Below, piece after piece: positions 6,037 to 23,382 of a DNA stretch of 28,749 nucleotides (positions within the stretch are counted from its first letter, which is position 1; the number at the start of each line of letters is the position of its first letter). A model generated the notes under the pieces. It had not been told where the DNA came from. It was given only the letters and a program-made list of their open reading frames with translations, and did not search any database. The translations under genes and the position numbers were made by a program. Source of the stretch: a virus (Duplodnaviria > Heunggongvirae > Uroviricota > Caudoviricetes); the IMG/VR virus record IMGVR_UViG_2925914267_000002, one strand, 5' to 3'.

Positions 6037-6094
6037 AAAAACGGCGGCAGAGCAGTCACGGAGTAAAACTGATACCGCCAAACGTCACCAGAAA
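6037..6094 (-). ncRNA. dicF: DicF small regulatory RNA, with terminator U-tract
   Basis: Minus-strand sequence TTTCTGGTGACGTTTGGCGGTATCAGTTTTACTCCGTGACTGCTCTGCCGCCGTTTTT matches the DicF sRNA as I recall it. Lies between the ydfA-like genes and dicB as in K-12 Qin; 3' GC-rich stem plus U-run. Confidence 0.75.
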
Positions 6095-7260: not shown

Positions 7261-7668
7261 TTATTGATGCTTGTTGCGTTTGCGAGCCTCTAATAGCTCG
7301 GTGAACAGGCGATTAAAATTCTCAACGCGGGCGCGGAGTTCGCTGAGTTGTGCTTGTTGCTCTGATTTAGGAAGTGCGCGATACAAACGCAGCATCTCTA
7401 ACTCATCTTCCGATAAGTCTAAGGCACTATCGAGTGAAACAGGGGGAGCTGGTGTTTTGTCCTCGTCGCCAAACAGTATCCAGGTTGGTGAACATTGCAA
7501 TACCTCGGCGAGGCGATGCAAATTTTGCCCGCGCGGGGCTGTATGGTCACTTTCCCATAATGAAATTGATGAGCCAGATACGCCAGCAGCTTTGCTTAAA
7601 CCGTTTTGACTTAAGCCTACCTGCTTACGTCTTTCTCTAATGCGTTGACCTAAAGTTTTCTCGTTCAT
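7261..7668 (-). CDS. dicA: DicA-like HTH (XRE-family) repressor, cI analogue
   Basis: 135-aa product from internal Met (MNEKTLGQRIRERRKQVGLSQ...). HTH motif and the stretch VLQCSPTWILFGDEDK match DicA as I recall it; divergent from a Cro/DicC-like gene. Confidence 0.85.
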   Translation of the reverse strand: MNEKTLGQRIRERRKQVGLSQNGLSKAAGVSGSSISLWESDHTAPRGQNLHRLAEVLQCSPTWILFGDEDKTPAPPVSLDSALDLSEDELEMLRLYRALPKSEQQAQLSELRARVENFNRLFTELLEARKRNKHQ

Positions 7669-7718
7669 ATTTAGATATCTTAATAACCCTTGACTTGAGA
7701 TTCCTTGAGTGATTAGCA

Positions 7719-7732
7719 TTGAGAAAACTCAA
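7719..7732. promoter_or_regulatory. Candidate operator between the dicA-like and dicC-like genes
   Basis: TTGAGAAAACTCAA (inverted ends TTGAG/CTCAA) 14 bp upstream of the dicC-like start; core 13-mer identical to 7184-7196. Additional TTGAG copies at 7695 and 7705. Confidence 0.4.
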
Positions 7733-7745
7733 TACTGGAGGTGCG

Positions 7746-7973
7746 ATGTTTAAATCAGACGTAATTAATTTTTACGGTACGAAAGCCAAAGTAGCGAAAG
7801 CTGCTGGCGTTGACCCATCTGCTGTTTCTCAATGGCAAGAGCTGGTTCCTGAAGGTCGCGCGATGCGTCTACAGGAGGCATCTGGCGGCGAGCTTCTGTA
7901 TGATCCCAAGGTTTATGACGAATATCGTAAGACGAAGCGGGCGGGGCGGTTGAACAATGAAAATCACTCCTGA
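7746..7973 (+). CDS. dicC: DicC/Cro-like small regulator
   Basis: 75-aa product from internal Met (MFKSDVINFYGTKAKVAKAAGVDPSAVSQWQ...); divergent from the dicA-like repressor; HTH-like N-terminus. Confidence 0.6.
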   Translation: MFKSDVINFYGTKAKVAKAAGVDPSAVSQWQELVPEGRAMRLQEASGGELLYDPKVYDEYRKTKRAGRLNNENHS

Positions 7974-8478
7974 ACAGGCTCGTGAGGCTCTGGATGCCTG
8001 GATATGTCGACCAGGAATGACACAGGAGCAGGCGACGATATTAATCACTGAAGCATTCTGGGCTTTGAAAGAGCGCCCGAACATCGATGTTCAGCGTGTC
8101 ACAGATGAAGGTGGCGCGGTTGATCAGCGAGCGCTTGGCGTTAATCGAGTGAAGATATTCGAACGCTGGAAGGCTATCGACACCAGGGATAAGCGTGAAA
8201 AGTTCACGGCGCTAGTGCCTGCAATTATGGAGGCTATCCGGATTAATGATTTCAGGTTGTATCGTGAAATTAGTGACGGAAAAAGCATCACGTACATGAT
8301 CGCCGGGTTAAACAAAGAATATGGCGATGTGGTGGAGTCCGGACTGCTTTTTGCTGATCCTGCCGTAGTGGATCGTGAAACTGACGAACTTATAGAAAAA
8401 GCAATTGCTTTCAAACTTGCGTATCGACAGCAATACCAACAAAAAGCTGGATGGAATTATGAGCCTTCTTTTTGCTGA
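7957..8478 (+). CDS. YdaT-like (CII-position) prophage protein
   Basis: 173-aa ORF overlapping the end of the cro-like gene, in the position occupied by ydaT/cII-like genes in lambdoid prophages. Family assignment is by position and general resemblance only. Confidence 0.5.
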   Translation: MKITPEQAREALDAWICRPGMTQEQATILITEAFWALKERPNIDVQRVTDEGGAVDQRALGVNRVKIFERWKAIDTRDKREKFTALVPAIMEAIRINDFRLYREISDGKSITYMIAGLNKEYGDVVESGLLFADPAVVDRETDELIEKAIAFKLAYRQQYQQKAGWNYEPSFC

Positions 8479-9424
8479 ACGCCCACTGGTTATAAACACA
8501 CAGCTTGCGATGAAGATTGGCTTAAATGAAGCCATTGTGTTGCAGCAGTTGCATTACTGGTTGAGAGATACCAATTCCGGCATGGAATGTGATGGTGTTC
8601 GCTGGATTTACAACACAACGGAACAATGGCTGGAACAGTTCCCATTCTGGTCAGAGTCAACGTTAAAGCGCGCGTTTGCAAGTCTGAAAACGCTGGGGCT
8701 TTTGCGTTGTGAAAAGCTCAATAAATCAAAGCGCGATATGACCAATTTCTACACGATTAACTATGGGAGCGAGCTTTTAGATGATGGCAAATTGAGCGAA
8801 TCCATCGGTTCAAAATGCGCCGCTCCATCAGGTCAAAATGACACGATGGAAGAGGTCAAAATGAAACGCTCCATTGGTTCAAAACGACCCAATGTCATCG
8901 GGTCAAAATGGCCCGATGATCCTACAGAGAATACAACAGAGATTACTACAGAGAATAAAAACACTTTTCGTCCGGAAGCTTCGCAACCGGACCCGCAGAC
9001 GGCTGAACAGGATTTTTTAATCCGGCACCCTGGCGCAGTTGTGTTTAGTGCGAAAAAACGCCAGTGGGGTAGCCAGGAGGATCTGGCGTGTGCGCAGTGG
9101 ATATGGGGGCGGATCGTGGGTCTCTACGAACAGGCCGCCAGTGATGATGGCGAGATCATGCGACCAAAAGAGCCTAACTGGACTGTCTGGGCCAATGATG
9201 TGCGCACAATGCGGATGCTGGATGGCAGAAGCCACAGACAAATTTGTGAAATGTTTGGTCGGGTACAGCGGGATCCATTCTGGGTAAAAAACATCATGAG
9301 CCCGTCAAAGCTCCGCGAAAAATGGGACGAACTGGTCATCCGCCTGGGGCGTTCACCTGTACAGCGTTGTGTTAATCATATTTCTGAACCGGATACAGAA
9401 ATTCCGCCTGGTTTCAGAGGATAA
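8459..9424 (+). CDS. Replication initiator (O-like) protein with embedded origin iterons
   Basis: About 321 aa from ATG 8459 (track ORF starts at 8405). N-terminal winged-helix-like region; central part encodes repeated SIGSK/VIGSK peptides that correspond to DNA iterons; start overlaps the preceding gene. Confidence 0.65.
   Translation: MSLLFAERPLVINTQLAMKIGLNEAIVLQQLHYWLRDTNSGMECDGVRWIYNTTEQWLEQFPFWSESTLKRAFASLKTLGLLRCEKLNKSKRDMTNFYTINYGSELLDDGKLSESIGSKCAAPSGQNDTMEEVKMKRSIGSKRPNVIGSKWPDDPTENTTEITTENKNTFRPEASQPDPQTAEQDFLIRHPGAVVFSAKKRQWGSQEDLACAQWIWGRIVGLYEQAASDDGEIMRPKEPNWTVWANDVRTMRMLDGRSHRQICEMFGRVQRDPFWVKNIMSPSKLREKWDELVIRLGRSPVQRCVNHISEPDTEIPPGFRG
8801..8912. repeat. Iteron array (5 direct repeats, 23-24 bp period) = candidate prophage replication origin
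   Basis: Repeats TCCATCGGTTCAAAATG, CATCAGGTCAAAATG, GAAGAGGTCAAAATG, CCATTGGTTCAAAACG and CATCGGGTCAAAATG ending at 8817, 8840, 8863, 8886 and 8910. Followed by an AT-rich stretch with 3 copies of ACAGAGA(A/T)TA (8921-8960). Confidence 0.7.
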
Positions 9425-9464
9425 GTTTTGATTTCAGGTCATGAGGTAATTTTAAGGGGGACTT

Positions 9465-9866
9465 GTGGCAAAAGTTTTTACACAAGAAGAGCGGGAAAAA
9501 ATTAAAGGGCAGGTGGTGGAACTCGTGCGCCAGAGCGGTCGTGAGACGTTACGGCAACTGGAAGCTAAAACAGGTGCGACTAGATATCTGATGAGCGTTC
9601 TTGCCAGAGAGCTGGTAGCCAGTGGCGATGTATACAACTCCGGCTACGGGTTATTCCCGTCTGAACAGGCGCGTAAGGACTGGCAAAACGCCCGCAAAAA
9701 ACTCTCGAGGGCAAAGGTGAAGAAAACAGCTGTGGTTGATCCGGACCTTATCTGGTCGTTACCTGATGGAGAAATACGTCGCTACGACAGTCGCCTAAAC
9801 ATAATCTGTCGCGAGTGCCGGATGAGTGAAGTTATGCAGCGCATACTGGCATTTTATCAGGGATAA
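9465..9866 (+). CDS. Hypothetical protein (GTG start)
   Basis: 133-aa ORF with GTG start 6 nt downstream of AAGGGGGA; follows the O-like gene on the same strand. No family recognised. Confidence 0.5.
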   Translation: MAKVFTQEEREKIKGQVVELVRQSGRETLRQLEAKTGATRYLMSVLARELVASGDVYNSGYGLFPSEQARKDWQNARKKLSRAKVKKTAVVDPDLIWSLPDGEIRRYDSRLNIICRECRMSEVMQRILAFYQG

Positions 9867-10084: not shown

Positions 10085-10435
10085 TTAAGTCTGAGCCTCA
10101 CTCTCTTGGCCATAAGTGGCTTGCCAGTATCTCGCCGTAGGGTTCATTAGAATGTGCAATACAAGCCACCATGCAAAAATGCAGGGAGGTTGATTGTAGT
10201 AACCGGCAGGCACATATCCGTGAGCTAGTTGATTTCGTAAATCACCATAGATTTTATCTACCAGTAAGGCCTGAAGATTGCCAATTATGTCTACGCCGAA
10301 AGCTTCAATAATCAGTGGATTATCTAGTAATCCCTTGAGTCCATTTCGCTCTTGCGAACCGTCCCCGTGAAGCTGCGATGGTTCCTCACCTTTAATTTTA
10401 GCCACATATCTCAGACTATTTTCGATCTGGGGAAT
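10085..10435 (-). pseudogene. C-terminal part of an IS629-disrupted large gene; carries a HEPN-type R-x4-H-G motif
   Basis: Continues in frame from the 11746-13185 ORF once IS629 and one AAT repeat are removed (junction ...CHVLI-PQIENSLRY-VAKIKGEE...). Contains DLRNQLAHGY. Confidence 0.6.
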
Positions 10436-10489
10436 TGAACCGCCCCGGAAATCCTGGAGACTAAACTCCCTGAGAAAGAGGTAAACAGG

Positions 10490-10816
10490 ATGACTAAAAA
10501 TACTCGTTTTTCCCCCGAAGTCCGTCAGCGGGCGATTCGTATGGTTCTGGAAAGTCAGGATGAATATGACTCACAGTGGGCGGCAATTTGTTCCATTGCC
10601 CCAAAGATTGGCTGTACGCCGGAGACTCTGCGTGTCTGGGTTCGCCAGCATGAGCGGGATACCGGGGGCGGTGATGGTGGGCTCACCAGTGCTGAACGTC
10701 AGCGTCTGAAAGAGCTGGAACGTGAAAATCGTGAACTGCGCCGCAGTAACGATATCCTTCGCCAGGCTTCCGCTTATTTTGCGAAGGCGGAGTTCGACCG
10801 CCTCTGGAAAAAATGA
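10490..10816 (+). CDS. IS629 transposase OrfA
   Basis: 108-aa [26 protein letters not shown]..., typical IS3-family OrfA. Confidence 0.9.
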
Positions 10817-11703
10817 TGCCACTGCTGGATAAGCTGCGTGAGCAGTACGGGGTCGGACCGGTATGCAGCGAACTGCATATTGCCCCGTCAACGTATTACC
10901 ATTGTCAGCAACAGCGACATCATCCGGATAAACGCAGTGCCCGTGCGCAGCACGACGACTGGCTGAAGAGAGAGATACAGCGCGTATACGATGAAAATCA
11001 TCAGGTGTACGGTGTGCGTAAAGTCTGGCGTCAGTTGTTACGGGAAGGAATCAGGGTAGCCAGATGTACAGTGGCGCGCCTCATGGCGGTTATGGGACTT
11101 GCCGGTGTTCTCCGGGGTAAAAAGGTCCGCACTACCGTCAGCCGGAAAGCCGTTGCCGCAGGCGACCGCGTAAACCGTCAGTTTGTGGCAGAACGACCTG
11201 ACCAGCTGTGGGTGGCTGATTTTACTTACGTCAGCACATGGCAGGGCTTCGTCTATGTGGCGTTTATCATTGATGTGTTTGCCGGATACATCGTGGGGTG
11301 GCGGGTCTCATCGTCTATGGAAACGACATTCGTGCTGGATGCGCTGGAGCAGGCGTTGTGGGCCCGTCGTCCGTCTGGCACCATCCATCACAGCGATAAA
11401 GGCTCTCAGTATGTGTCACTGGCCTATACGGAGCGACTAAAAGAAGCCGGATTACTGGCATCAACAGGGAGTACAGGCGACTCGTATGACAACGCGATGG
11501 CTGAGAGCATCAATGGTCTTTACAAAGCGGAGGTAATACACCGTAAGAGCTGGAAAAACCGTGCAGAAGTGGAACTGGCCACACTAACGTGGGTGGACTG
11601 GTATAACAATCGACGATTGCTGGGAAGGCTGGGCCATACTCCTCCGGCAGAAGCAGAAAAAGCTTATTATGCTTCCATCGGAAACGATGATCTGGCAGCC
11701 TGA
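10813..11703 (+). CDS. IS629 transposase OrfB (DDE domain)
   Basis: 296-aa ORF overlapping orfA (ATGA); DDE-type motifs [25 protein letters not shown]. Confidence 0.9.
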
Positions 11704-11745
11704 GTTCACAGATAAAACACTCTCCAGGAAACCCGGGGCGGTTCA

Positions 11746-13185
11746 AATCAACACGTGGCATGCCGTCATAAAATCTCCATTGAAACCGCAAACCATACCC
11801 TTGATGAAAAACTCTTCATGCCCAAACGGGATGAAGGGATGATTGATGAACATATCGCGAAAAAACGCCTCCGAGATTGGATATTTCATTGTGATCTCAT
11901 CTGTAGCAGGAATAATTTGCCCAGCTACTGCCAACTCATGGTCGATACGCATTCTCGTCATCATTATGGGCCAAATAACTGCCCCATTTGCATCATCAAT
12001 CCCCAATCCTGCGGGTATGTGAGCAAGTGTCATTCCCTCATGATCAATATGTGTTGATCCAAACATCCAAGCTATGCTGTTGGCCTTTTGTTCTATTGCT
12101 TGAGCCTTAAGTCTCTCAATGCTGGTTGGCCGACAGACCAGCATCGCAAGTCTGAAAACCATATCAAACAAATCTCTTCCGACTACCCGACTCTTGGCTT
12201 GATGGACAATCTCACTAATATCTTGAGGGGGAGACTGAAGGATAGACATCTGGTGACGGGATTCGATTTGGTAATCACGCATTTCTTCATACAGCGCAAG
12301 ACGTTCTATTCGGGTTCCTGGAATATTAGCCAGTGCTTCAATAGCATTCTGCATGCAGGCTGCCGAAATCATACCGCCATCTTGGAATTTTGACTCTTCC
12401 AGATGTGTATCGGCAAGAAGCCGCCAGAATTCAAACTGTGTATCTCTGTCACAGCACCTATTCGCAATCGGGATTGCGGTTTTACAGGCATCGACGGCAA
12501 ATGAAAATAATTTTTGAGCCAGATAGTTTTTTGTCAGAAACAGGAGTTCCTGGGCAATAAAAGATGGCTCACTCACTTTACAGTCGATATCGAGTTGCAG
12601 GAGTCGCAGCGGATAAGGTGAATCGCCTTGTTCTCTGGTACGTTCATACTCTGCTAGTAGATGTGCCGAAAGCTGATCAAATTCATCCCTGAAATCAGTA
12701 TTCTTTCGAAAAAAACAACACAGCCTAAGCGCACGCTCTAGGCGTTCTAAAGCACTAACCCACGTCCCTTGCGATGTCATAATAGCTATACTGGACGCAT
12801 AATAAGCACGGACTGCCAGCAAAGGAAAACGGATTCCACCAATTTTACGAACCCAAAGTGTATCAGCAATACGAGCTTGAAGTTCGGGTAGCTCTATCGT
12901 CGGGCAAAATTGAGAAAGTACCTCCAGCGACAACCCGTTAATGTCATCCGGAATTGCAGATCTACCTTGGCTGCTTTGAAAGCACGGACCAAATGGTACC
13001 TGTGGATTTTCGGGACGAAAGTGAAAACCGCAAATATGGGTTAGCAGTCTTATCTCCGCTCTTCCATCACCTAGGCTAGAAAGATACTTTGTGATATCAA
13101 AGCAGGTAACTGGCAGCTTACTCTGGATTAAGGGGGATAAATCAATAGTGTTAAGTTCGTCGAGGCTGATATTAATATCGTCCAT
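11746..13185 (-). pseudogene. N-terminal 480 codons of the IS629-disrupted HEPN-motif gene
   Basis: The 480-aa track ORF ends on a stop codon located inside the IS629 right end (11743-11745), so the native reading frame continues beyond the IS. No NTPase motif seen. Confidence 0.6.
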
Positions 13186-13859
13186 GTCGTCACCTTGATG
13201 ATTTGTTAATGCGGGGGCAACATTAATAAATGTACTTGAGACCGCAATTTGTCGATGGAGCCAACATTTATAACTATGTGCTTCTACCCTCTGAATTTTT
13301 ACATGTGAATTGCTAGCTTGAATAGCTCTATCATTATATACGTGGCACTAAATTATGGCTGTTTTTCGCTCAAAGCGGACTAGAAGGTTAGCTTGTGTCG
13401 GACTTTGCGTATTAAAAGAAGTGCTGGTGGTGACTAGTGGTTGTGCCCCATTTCCACAGAAAAAATCAGAGAAACTATACCCAATAGTTGTATTGAATCA
13501 CTGACGAGACAGCCTCATATTCATCAGGACTGGTCTACGTCCAATACAGGAGGTTGTGGTGCTGGTTCTCAAATGTGCGCTGGCTATTACGGCTGTAATG
13601 GCGATTTATTGTCTTGCTATTGTTCTTATGGATCGCCTTTCTGACTGATTTCATATTGGCGAGGTAACGGTAGTTAAGTAGAATGGCTGCGGGTGCTTGA
13701 GGCTATCTGCCTCGGGCATGAACACCAAAGGCAGATAGAGAAAAGCCCCAGTTAACATTACGCGTCCTGCAAGACGCTTAACATTAATCTGAGGCCAATT
13801 TCATGCTAGACACATGTAGGTTAGCCTCTTACGTGCCGAAAGGCAAGGAGAAGCAGGCT

Positions 13860-14015
13860 ATGAAGCAGCAAAAGGCGATGTTAATCGCCCTGATCGTCAT
13901 CTGTTTAACCGTCATAGTGACGGCACTGGTAACGAGGAAAGACCTCTGCGAGGTACGAATCCGAACCGGCCAGACGGAGGTCGCTGTCTTCACAGCTTAC
14001 GAACCTGAGGAGTAA
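13860..14015 (+). CDS. hokD: Hok-family type I toxin (HokD/RelF-like)
   Basis: 51-aa product MKQQKAMLIALIVICLTVIVTALVTRKDLCEVRIRTGQTEVAVFTAYEPEE from ATG 13860 (RBS AAGGAGAA); single TM helix; matches HokD/RelF as I recall it. An in-frame ATG at 13803 extends the frame by 19 codons. Confidence 0.9.
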   Translation: MKQQKAMLIALIVICLTVIVTALVTRKDLCEVRIRTGQTEVAVFTAYEPEE

Positions 14016-17279: not shown

Positions 17280-17579
17280 AAAAATTCCTTAATACTGATA
17301 ACTTGGCGCACTATACACACGTTCCTGAAGAAAGCTATAGTTTTTTGATGGGGTTGAAGATGGCTGGATGTCTAAAATAAACATTGCTTCATATGTTCAA
17401 CTATGCGTTAATGATTGCGTCGGTTTGAAGAACAGACGATATACGAAGTAGTTTACTAAAGCAGTTCTCATTTCAGGTGTTATTCACTTATTCCTTCTTT
17501 GAGTCTCTCCAATTAAGTACGAAGTCGTTTCTGTTATGCAAACCATTTATGCCGAAAGGCTCAAGTTAAGGAATGTAGA

Positions 17580-17795
17580 ATGTCAAATAAAATGACTGGT
17601 TTAGTAAAATGGTTTAACGCTGATAAAGGTTTCGGCTTTATTTCTCCTGTTGATGGTAGTAAAGATGTGTTTGTGCATTTTTCTGCGATTCAGAATGATA
17701 ATTATCGAACCTTATTTGAAGGTCAAAAGGTTACCTTCTCTATAGAGAGTGGTGCTAAAGGTCCTGCAGCAGCAAATGTCATCATTACTGATTAA
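17580..17795 (+). CDS. cspB: Cold-shock protein CspB
   Basis: 71-aa [74 protein letters not shown]; about 300-nt leader region shared divergently with cspF. Confidence 0.9.
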
Positions 17796-18075
17796 AATTC
17801 ATCGCTCGTCTGTATACGATAACGAAGAAGGCTGATGCCTGAGTAGAGATACGGACAGAGTAGTGAATATTGGATCTCTTTAATAAAAAGTAAGGAGGTC
17901 CAATACATGAAACAATGGCTAGCATATTTGGCAAAATCTTAATCAGGAAAAGTATGCTAACCATTGTGGTGAAGTGCAGGTTTGCTGCATGAATAGTTTT
18001 ACAGCAGAAGCTAACTGCTGGCATGGCAAAACAAAGTGCGTAAGTGGATGACTCCCACAAAAAGCACCACAATCT

Positions 18076-20102: not shown

Positions 20103-20465
20103 GGTAATATTAAATCGGAACATTTACATCGCGGAATGTAAAATTTAAATAAAAAGGACTCTTCCATGAGCCAAAATTCCTGAAATCTTAAGGGTAAGAT
20201 AAAAGGTCTTAATCAGAATGACACGTTTTATTAATAAATAAAGCTATTCTTTCATTGCTGTGTTTTTCTTTACAAAAGTAATCCTTGCTATGGGTGGTTA
20301 ATCATGCGTTAATGGTGTTCTGGTTTGTTACAAATTTATCTGAAGCAGTCATTGTTATAATTTTATTATTTGTACCTCTTGAGATTTCCTTGTTGGTTTT
20401 TCTCTCTGATATTTTTTTTTCGGACCATTCTGCCCAAGGGCTAATTTCTTCAAAAGGTAATAATT

Positions 20466-20678
20466 ATGTCTAACAAAATGACTGGTTTAGTGAAATGGTT
20501 TAACCCTGAAAAAGGTTTTGGTTTCATCACGCCGAAAGATGGCAGCAAAGATGTGTTTGTCCATTTCTCAGCAATTCAGAGCAACGATTTCAAAACATTA
20601 ACTGAGAATCAGGAAGTTGAATTTGGTATTGAGAACGGACCTAAAGGTCCTGCCGCTGTTCATGTAGTGGCGCTTTGA
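20466..20678 (+). CDS. cspI: Cold-shock protein CspI
   Basis: 70-aa [73 protein letters not shown]; long leader (20103-20465). Confidence 0.9.
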
Positions 20679-20711
20679 GGTAGACAATATTACAAACCAT
20701 ATTCACTTTAG

Positions 20712-22807: not shown

Positions 22808-23382
22808 TGGCATTCAGAATGAGTGAACAACCACGGACCATAAAAATTTATAATCTGCTGGCCGGAACTAATGAATTTATTGGTGAAGGTGATGCATATA
22901 TTCCGCCTCATACAGGTCTGCCAGCAAACAGTACCGATATTGCACCGCCAGATATTCCGGCTGGCTTCGTGGCTGTTTTCAACAGTGATGAGTCATCGTG
23001 GCATCTCGTTGAAGATCATCGGGGTAAAACGGTTTATGACGTGGCTTCCGGCGACGCGTTATTTATTTCTGAACTCGGTCCGTTACCGGAAAATGTTACC
23101 TGGTTATCGCCGGAAGGGGAGTTTCAGAAGTGGAACGGCACAGCCTGGGTGAAGGATACGGAAGCAGAAAAACTGTTCCGGATCCGGGAGGCGGAAGAAA
23201 CAAAAAACAACCTGATGCAGGTAGCCAGTGAGCATATTGCGCCGCTTCAGGATGCTGCAGATCTGGAAATCGCAACGGAGGAAGAAATCTCGTTGCTGGA
23301 AGCATGGAAAAAGTATCGGGTATTGCTGAACCGTGTTGATACGTCAACTGCACAGGATATTGAATGGCCAGCACTGCCGTAG
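22807..23382 (+). CDS. tfaQ: Tail fibre assembly protein (Tfa)
   Basis: 191-aa ORF; start overlaps the stf stop (TAATG); Tfa-like sequence and position. Confidence 0.85.

Follow-up and report, generated by a model that had tools for sequence, protein, structure and literature searches.

A predicted lambda-type replication origin inside the initiator gene of a Qin-site lambdoid prophage that has no helicase-loader gene

The replication origins of phage lambda and of the Stx phages are located inside the initiator gene, between the parts that encode the N- and C-terminal domains. They comprise four to six iterons (six in Stx phages) with internal dyad symmetry and a spacing of 20–24 bp, and in lambda a purine-rich A/T tract lies on the C-terminal side of these iterons. 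In the lambda record, ori iterons 1–4 occupy codons ~117–145 of O, with spacings of 20, 24 and 23 nucleotides (nt). Two iterons beside the A/T tract suffice in vitro (PMC7466680). A related organization is described for the RepA_N plasmid initiators, such as those of pSK41 and pTZ2162. According to two reports, these proteins have a winged-helix N-terminal domain (NTD), central repeats that encode the linker and run toward an A-tract, and a host-specific C-terminal domain (CTD) that contacts host replication proteins (PMC5703833, PMC7145576). It is also stated there that the NTD of pSK41 Rep binds four boxes central in rep, the origin-encoded linker being dispensable (PMC5703833), and that RepA_N iterons are semi-palindromes converging on a poly-A tract (PMC7145576). 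A 2025 survey of lambdoid phages of Enterobacterales reports an O homolog alone in 34 of 314, and calls the replication of these phages ‘not yet understood’ (PMC12315714). Here we describe such an O-only locus in a stretch of 28,749 nt (the window) from the IMG/VR virus record IMGVR_UViG_2925914267_000002 (Caudoviricetes). The window matches a prophage found at the Qin site, beside rspB/ynfA, in many E. coli strains. From sequence, structure prediction and comparison, positions 8780–8965 are best read, with a probability of about 0.8, as a lambda-type vegetative replication origin in the interdomain linker of the initiator gene of this lambdoid prophage. The parts of the initiator gene that matter for this reading are listed here.

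8459–9424, plus strand: O-like replication initiator gene, 321 amino acids (phrog_391 ‘replication initiation O-like’, E 3.5e-92)
8459–8779, plus strand: N-terminal winged-helix domain (N-domain), presumed iteron binder (fold comparison)
8780–8802, plus strand: iteron 0, degenerate copy GATGATGGCAAATTGAGCGAATC, 13/23 identical to the consensus
Starts at 8803, 8826, 8849, 8872 and 8896, end at 8918, plus strand: iterons 1–5, 23-nt palindromes with core GGTCAAAATG (repeat finders, cluster test)
8922–8965, plus strand: presumed unwinding element, three (N)ACAGAGAWTAC 12-nt units and an A-rich tail, purine-rich (repeats, stability, conservation)
8897–9340, plus strand: lambda-O-like stretch corresponding to lambda O residues 135–270 (last iteron, A/T tract, C-terminal domain) (BLASTP)
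9362–9421, plus strand: DnaT-like C-terminal tail QRCVNHISEPDTEIPPGFRG (E 1e-7 against E. coli K-12 DnaT)

An earlier note on this DNA had described five direct repeats recurring every 23–24 bp. They were recovered by a repeat finder (five 23-nt direct repeats, 8803–8918, spacing 23, 23, 23 and 24 nt) and by Tandem Repeats Finder, within slightly wider limits than those first given. With the degenerate copy in front, six 23-nt palindromic repeats span 8780–8918. The counterpart of this first copy in relatives, GAGGTCAAAGTGA, is better preserved there. The consensus of copies 2–6 is CATCGGGTCA-AAA-TGACCCGATG, with inverted arms that are perfect over 10 nt, and the best copy (22/23 against the consensus) adjoins the array of 12-nt units (12-mer array). 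In the whole 28.7-kb window, Tandem Repeats Finder (score at least 50) reported the iteron and 12-mer arrays only. The core GGTCAAAATG, allowing up to two mismatches, has five matches in a span of 120 nt. Of 300 sequences simulated from the window with a first-order Markov model, 245 had a largest cluster of two matches, 36 of three, one of four and none of five; this test is post hoc, the motif having been derived from the same data. A lambda-type origin is expected to have four or more direct repeats with internal dyad symmetry at ~20–24 bp spacing, and the present array has six copies with a 23/24-nt period.

The segment 3' of the iterons had been described as AT-rich with three ACAGAGA(A/T)TA repeats, and this is what is found. 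The three 12-nt units CTACAGAGAATA, CAACAGAGATTA and again CTACAGAGAATA occupy 8922–8957 (repeat finder), in a segment whose A+T content is moderate (62–68%, versus ~50% in the flanks). Within the gene, stability is lowest over the 40 bp at 8928–8968, a segment that is 68% A+T and 64% purine on the top strand and falls within the least stable 2% of the window. An adjacent, easily melted A/T segment is thus present on the C-terminal side of the iterons, moderately and not extremely so.

The comparison with lambdoid origins that the earlier note had proposed was run, and the lambda iterons lie at the matching place in O. The lambda iteron ATCCCTCAAAACGAGGGAT can be written ATC-CCT-CAAAAC-GAG-GGAT and the present one ATC-GGGT-CAAAAT-GACCC-GAT; the outer ATC...GAT frame and the central CAAAAYG are common to both. 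As in lambda, the initiator gene belongs to a rightward operon, after cro and cII-like genes. The iteron arms differ from those of lambda, and here the A/T tract is built of a conserved 12-nt ACAGAGA unit. The locus also has semi-palindromic iterons that converge on an A-tract in the centre of the gene, like RepA_N systems. Unlike the RepA_N initiators, it is of phage and not plasmid origin, has a lambda-O-type CTD and shows no sequence match to Pfam RepA_N. An ACAGAGA 12-mer array is not mentioned for RepA_N systems in the accessible parts of the two reports (PMC5703833, PMC7145576). The lambda-style placement of the origin in the O-like gene is strongly supported by PHROG membership, lambda O homology, iteron position, codon phases and retention in homologs. 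An origin as such is expected in a lambdoid prophage, and its detection is a confirmation rather than a surprise.

Such repeats could also be initiator sites for autoregulation, copy control or incompatibility (handcuffing), with replication starting elsewhere in the phage genome. Plasmid iterons serve control too, and the available text of the survey of O-only phages gives no direct mapping of the replication start in this group (PMC12315714). However, the iterons are joined directly to the least stable, strand-asymmetric segment of the gene, as in ori-lambda, and the array is far from the operon promoter. No further cluster of the GGTCAAAATG motif was seen elsewhere in the window. In addition, the characterised relatives lambda O and pSK41 Rep have their origin at the same position. 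We consider it unlikely that the repeats serve control while replication starts elsewhere.

The repeats are constrained at the DNA level. The codon phases at the starts of the six 23-nt copies are 0, 2, 1, 0, 2 and 2, and the encoded peptides are unrelated (IGSKC, SGQND, EVKMK). Since all three codon phases are used, these are DNA repeats and not peptide repeats. Mean pairwise nucleotide identity was calculated from an alignment of 10 Enterobacterales homologs, with the following values.

N-domain, codon positions 1 / 2 / 3: 0.85 / 0.93 / 0.56
Iteron cores: 0.87
Between iteron cores: 0.75
12-mer array: 0.92
Just after the 12-mer array: 0.45

Residues 109–175, the repeat-encoded part, have a predicted local distance difference test (pLDDT) score below 30 and are predicted to be disordered. 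The best-conserved DNA of the gene therefore encodes a linker that is disordered according to the model. The drop in identity after the array points to a module junction, at which relatives have different C-terminal domains (C-domains). In Klebsiella phage Kp4882-3 the C-domain past this junction is Pfam Phg_2220_C.

Homologs of the N-domain are present in phages of Klebsiella, Erwinia, Pseudomonas, Staphylococcus, Geobacillus and others. A whole-protein scan of viral contigs yielded 80 near-identical loci (96–100%), useless for covariation, and an alignment-based scan of species genomes was used instead. The N-domain was found at 80 loci from different bacterial species, and the comparison set comprises 88 loci. 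Most of these have three to six semi-palindromic repeats with a 21–24 nt period right after the N-domain. The iteron centre CAAA(A/T)TG is constant across relatives and the arms vary by clade, as listed for the iteron cores.

Escherichia, Citrobacter, Enterobacter: GGTCAAAATGACC
Pantoea, Erwinia, Pseudomonas, Yersinia: GGGCAAATTGCCC
Campylobacterales: GTGCAAAATGCAC
Geobacillus: CTGTTCAAAATGAACAG
Staphylococcus-like: CGTATCAAAATGATACG

Phage Tritos, with a different N-domain, has different repeats (GTCACG) at the same place. The repeats thus vary along with the presumed binding domain. Homologous O-like genes lacking the repeats had been named as an observation that would speak against an origin; the diverged homologs keep them.

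The 12-nt unit, (A/C)CAGAGAYTAC in relatives, is found there in 2–5 phased copies after the iterons, ~290–600 nt from the start of the N-domain. Its range covers Enterobacterales, Pseudomonas, Desulfuromonas, Campylobacterales, Bacillaceae, Staphylococcus and Lactobacillus. The ACAGAGA heptamer reaches 5.5/kb in the 320 nt after the N-domain versus 0.044/kb elsewhere in the same loci (~125-fold), and is present in 68 of the 88 loci, with at least two copies in 48. The spacing of neighbouring CAGAGA copies is 12 nt (107 cases) or 11 nt (six cases). The motif is still found at ~50% N-domain identity, a divergence at which saturation of synonymous sites is expected.

According to another explanation, selection acts on the protein, as peptide repeats or as a flexible linker, and the repeats have no role as DNA sites. 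The period of the 12-mers is divisible by three and the units encode T-E-N/I-T repeats, and a single reading frame holds 193 of the 203 CAGAGA copies. However, the motif occurs in more than one frame, namely two, at nine loci. Of the 184 Thr-Glu dipeptides of the linker, 155 (84%) use ACAGAG out of eight synonymous codon pairs, compared with 10 of 66 elsewhere in the same open reading frames (ORFs) (Fisher p 5e-24, an inflated value because the homolog statistics ignore shared ancestry). This preference is seen in hosts of very different GC content (14 of 16 linker Thr-Glu pairs in hosts above 55% GC). The test took all Thr-Glu dipeptides; an earlier version was circular, the arrays having been defined by CAGAGA. 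The 23-nt repeats for their part fall in all three codon phases, and the repeat stretch, although predicted to be disordered, has DNA conserved above wobble positions and above codon position 1 of the folded domain. A protein-level origin of the repeats is in our view very improbable.

For the lambda-type origin proposed here, the 12-mer array is presumed to be the unwinding or single-strand-handling element. The initiator probably melts DNA or holds single strands there, or else the primosome enters at this place. The N-domain, the iteron array and the CAGAGA 12-mer array keep together at most of the 88 loci, which range from Proteobacteria to Firmicutes. The 12-mer array is inherited together with the N-domain and the iterons rather than with the C-domain. 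A literature search with the exact motif strings returned unrelated primer sequences only and no account of a 12-mer array, which is not proof of novelty.

The initiator itself is a composite protein, named ‘hypothetical protein’ in RefSeq and ‘Primosomal protein I’ by RAST. Because Pfam assigned no family to the whole initiator or to either half, it was identified from PHROGs, from BLASTP against lambda O and from its fold. Residues 147–294 align with lambda O residues 135–270 (34% identity, E 3e-27), and the alignment begins at the last iteron and the A/T tract in both proteins. This homology shows the C-terminal half to be a true lambda-O-type domain; Foldseek agrees, though weakly. The fold of the N-domain is closest to the winged-helix NTDs of RepA_N and DnaD proteins. 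This domain falls outside Pfam Phage_rep_O (PF04492), to which it has no match, whereas lambda O matches at 5.7e-36. In a Pfam scan up to E = 10, the N-domain also had no match to RepA_N (PF06970), and gave weak unrelated matches (Slx4, E 0.0044; YLR146W-A, E 0.015). The full-length AlphaFold model (pLDDT 59 overall, shallow alignment) was used for domain boundaries and disorder only. It has folded regions at residues 10–105 and 183–296 (helical), and the repeats cover codons 108–153 of 321, between the folded N- and C-regions. The top PDB sequence match, the YteR glycosyl hydrolase (E 0.003), was judged to be due to chance, and the DnaT tail alone was regarded as meaningful.

The N-domain is widespread, with 1642 proteins at E up to 1e-5 and no Pfam domain among the matches listed. 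In four proteins (P0012, P0050, P0069 and P0081) a lambda-O-type C-domain is joined to another N-domain (Pfam HTH_36, PF13730) by a DPS-rich linker. These fusions indicate that cassettes of a binding domain plus its putative origin are shuffled against C-domains. The same PF13730 swap is reported for the staphylococcal plasmid pPR9 (PMC5703833). The C-domain protein search returned mostly gene fragments, including some frameshifted products.

In Pfam and PHROG scans, no P, DnaC-like or helicase gene was found beside the initiator gene, unlike in lambda. The next gene, at 9465–9866, is DUF977/Ren-like, and the earlier note was correct that no helicase-loader gene follows. Its suggestion that the replication module looks incomplete is not supported and should be dropped. 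HannyBb and mEp460_ev081, both isolated and plaque-forming phages, carry the same O-then-DUF977 module at 98% identity and have no P, DnaC or DnaB gene; they show 3–4 mismatches to the window across the 186-nt origin. Phage mEp460_4F5 is likewise loader-less and has the same iterons, 12-mers and tail. The locus resembles in this respect the O-only modules of viable lambdoid phages (LLS, mEp460_4F5), in which, according to the survey, one O homolog stands alone and a helicase or loader gene is lacking; its available text holds no description of an origin, of iterons or of a DnaT-like tail (PMC12315714). The absence of a loader is real but normal for the O-only phage type, and not a sign of decay.

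An origin that is real in kind but a fossil, within a decaying prophage with an incomplete replication module, would also lack a loader gene after the initiator. An IS3-family element splits a nearby gene, and in K-12 this site is occupied by the cryptic Qin prophage. However, the initiator ORF is intact and its protein is 100% identical in many viral contigs, at least 80% of the module (segment 7200–10500) is present in 414 complete E. coli genomes, and the module is 98% identical to that of the plaque-forming phages mentioned above, which have no loader gene either. Decay is for us an improbable explanation.

In place of lambda O's own C-terminus, the initiator has a DnaT-like tail. Its last 20 residues and those of E. 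coli K-12 DnaT are identical at 14 of 20 positions (70%), and they form the very C-terminus in both proteins. BLASTP aligned these 20 residues only and gave no alignment of the rest of the initiator with DnaT, which itself has no iteron-binding domain. The RAST name was rejected as a full-length DnaT identity, as NCBIfam PRK02854 scored 16.3 bits against a cutoff of 201 and matched at profile positions 160–179 only. The tail is associated with the absence of a loader gene. Among 25 distinct ORFs that follow tail-bearing initiators, none matches a loader or helicase Pfam family, and PerC, HTH_24, DUF977 and Dam are found instead. In 28 tail-less cases, the matches of the downstream ORF include 12 IstB/DnaC-like, two lambda P and two DnaB_C, and initiators ending in HWNSPEAWENTL are followed by a lambda P homolog. 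A Walker-A ORF is located downstream of 1 of 25 tail-bearing versus 28 of 61 tail-less initiators, a crude proxy that misses lambda P and an unassigned family of ~260 residues, so that the Pfam counts are the better evidence. We infer from these associations that the extreme tail may be a partner-specific recruitment peptide, the DnaT-type tail letting the phage use host machinery. Our literature search on mimicry of the DnaT tail by phage initiators found nothing relevant.

Proteins of ~250–275 residues are encoded directly after tail-less initiators in elements of Erwinia, Klebsiella, Pseudomonas, Yersinia and Desulfuromonas (L086 2863–3684, L088 2936–3685, L089 2983–3771, L111 3350–4123, L123 3519–4334). 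The members at L086 and L111 have no Pfam match, and no downstream Walker-A ORF is found at the five loci. This family may comprise unrecognised helicase loaders.

We propose that dimers of the N-terminal winged-helix domain would bind the five or six 23-bp palindromic iterons, giving an O-some-like nucleoprotein complex. The resulting strain would be relieved when the neighbouring ACAGAGA 12-mer array opens, which is purine-rich and has the lowest DNA stability within the gene. The lambda-O-type C-domain and the DnaT-copied tail would then bring in the host helicase-loading machinery, either DnaB-DnaC directly or via PriA/PriB. Such recruitment would explain how the phage does without a P or DnaC gene. 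The module as such is a variant that has no loader gene: its initiator joins an N-domain resembling RepA_N to a C-domain of the lambda-O type and to a DnaT-like tail, and the initiator gene contains the conserved 12-mer array. That the array is a cis-acting, cross-phylum origin element and, jointly, that the tail replaces the loader gene in O-only phages is a tentative proposal, to which we give somewhat less than an even chance.

Several observations weigh against the origin and its proposed mechanism. The instability of the A/T segment is moderate (68% A+T, 2nd percentile of the window), the ACAGAGA heptamer is missing in 20 of the 88 loci, other repeats occur in some Bacillaceae loci, and the homolog p-values are inflated as stated above. 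A downstream Walker-A ORF is missing also for 33 of the 61 tail-less initiators, which makes the association between tail and loader absence one-directional. The O-only phages are described as unstudied in the survey (PMC12315714). The role of DnaT residues 154–179 and the route of DnaB/DnaC recruitment are left open in two papers (PMC4132743, PMC13377028), and since the function of these residues is not established, the partner of the tail is a guess.

For O-only lambdoid phages, the locus provides a concrete predicted origin and a domain map of the initiator. The DnaT-like tail offers a testable explanation for the missing loader and may inform how DnaT recruits DnaB/DnaC; if this explanation is true, the tail peptide would point to the recruitment motif of DnaT. 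The 12-mer array would be a simple cross-phylum signature that could help to find origins in the genomes of thousands of phages and prophages.

The genes around the initiator gene follow the order helix-turn-helix (HTH) repressor (minus strand), Cro-like, CII/YdaT-like, O-like initiator and DUF977/LygF/Ren-like, which corresponds by annotation to the lambdoid immunity-replication layout minus P.

7261–7719, minus strand: HTH repressor gene (CI/DicA-like), divergent from the cro-like gene (Pfam HTH_3, E 2e-15)
7690–7719, plus strand: possible pR equivalent, sigma-70-like match TTGACT-18-TAGCAT (consensus scan; weak evidence)
7746–7973, plus strand: Cro-like regulator gene (Pfam P22_Cro, E 4e-16; coordinates per phage records)
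7957–8478, plus strand: CII-like/YdaT-family gene, in the same rightward operon upstream of the initiator gene (phrog_163, E 2.3e-40; Pfam YdaT_toxin)
9465–9866, plus strand: downstream gene DUF977/LygF/Ren-like (Pfam PF06163, E 6e-27; phrog_142 Ren-like exclusion protein)

The candidate promoter at 7690–7719 could possibly transcribe through the origin. An alternative in-frame TTG start at 8405 would give an initiator of 339 amino acids; the 966-nt form is the one annotated in phage records. The IS3-family element mentioned above is located within 10085–13185 (ORFs 10490–10816 and 10813–11703; ALIL frameshift pseudoknot 10771–10887). It interrupts a DUF7380/DUF4209 gene on the minus strand, leaving pieces at 10085–10405 and 11743–13185; in E. 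coli 118UI this ORF is uninterrupted and encodes 595 amino acids. An Rfam scan of 8400–9500 gave zero families at gathering score, and an RNA element was dropped as an explanation of the repeats. In other parts of the window, Rfam matches at gathering score are the DicF small RNA (6042–6093, minus strand), the sok antitoxin RNA beside hokD (13691–13865, plus strand), two cspA-type thermoregulator leaders (17419–17811 and 20319–20705, both plus strand) and the IS009 RNA (23150–23348, plus strand). These RNAs are typical cargo of Qin-type prophages.

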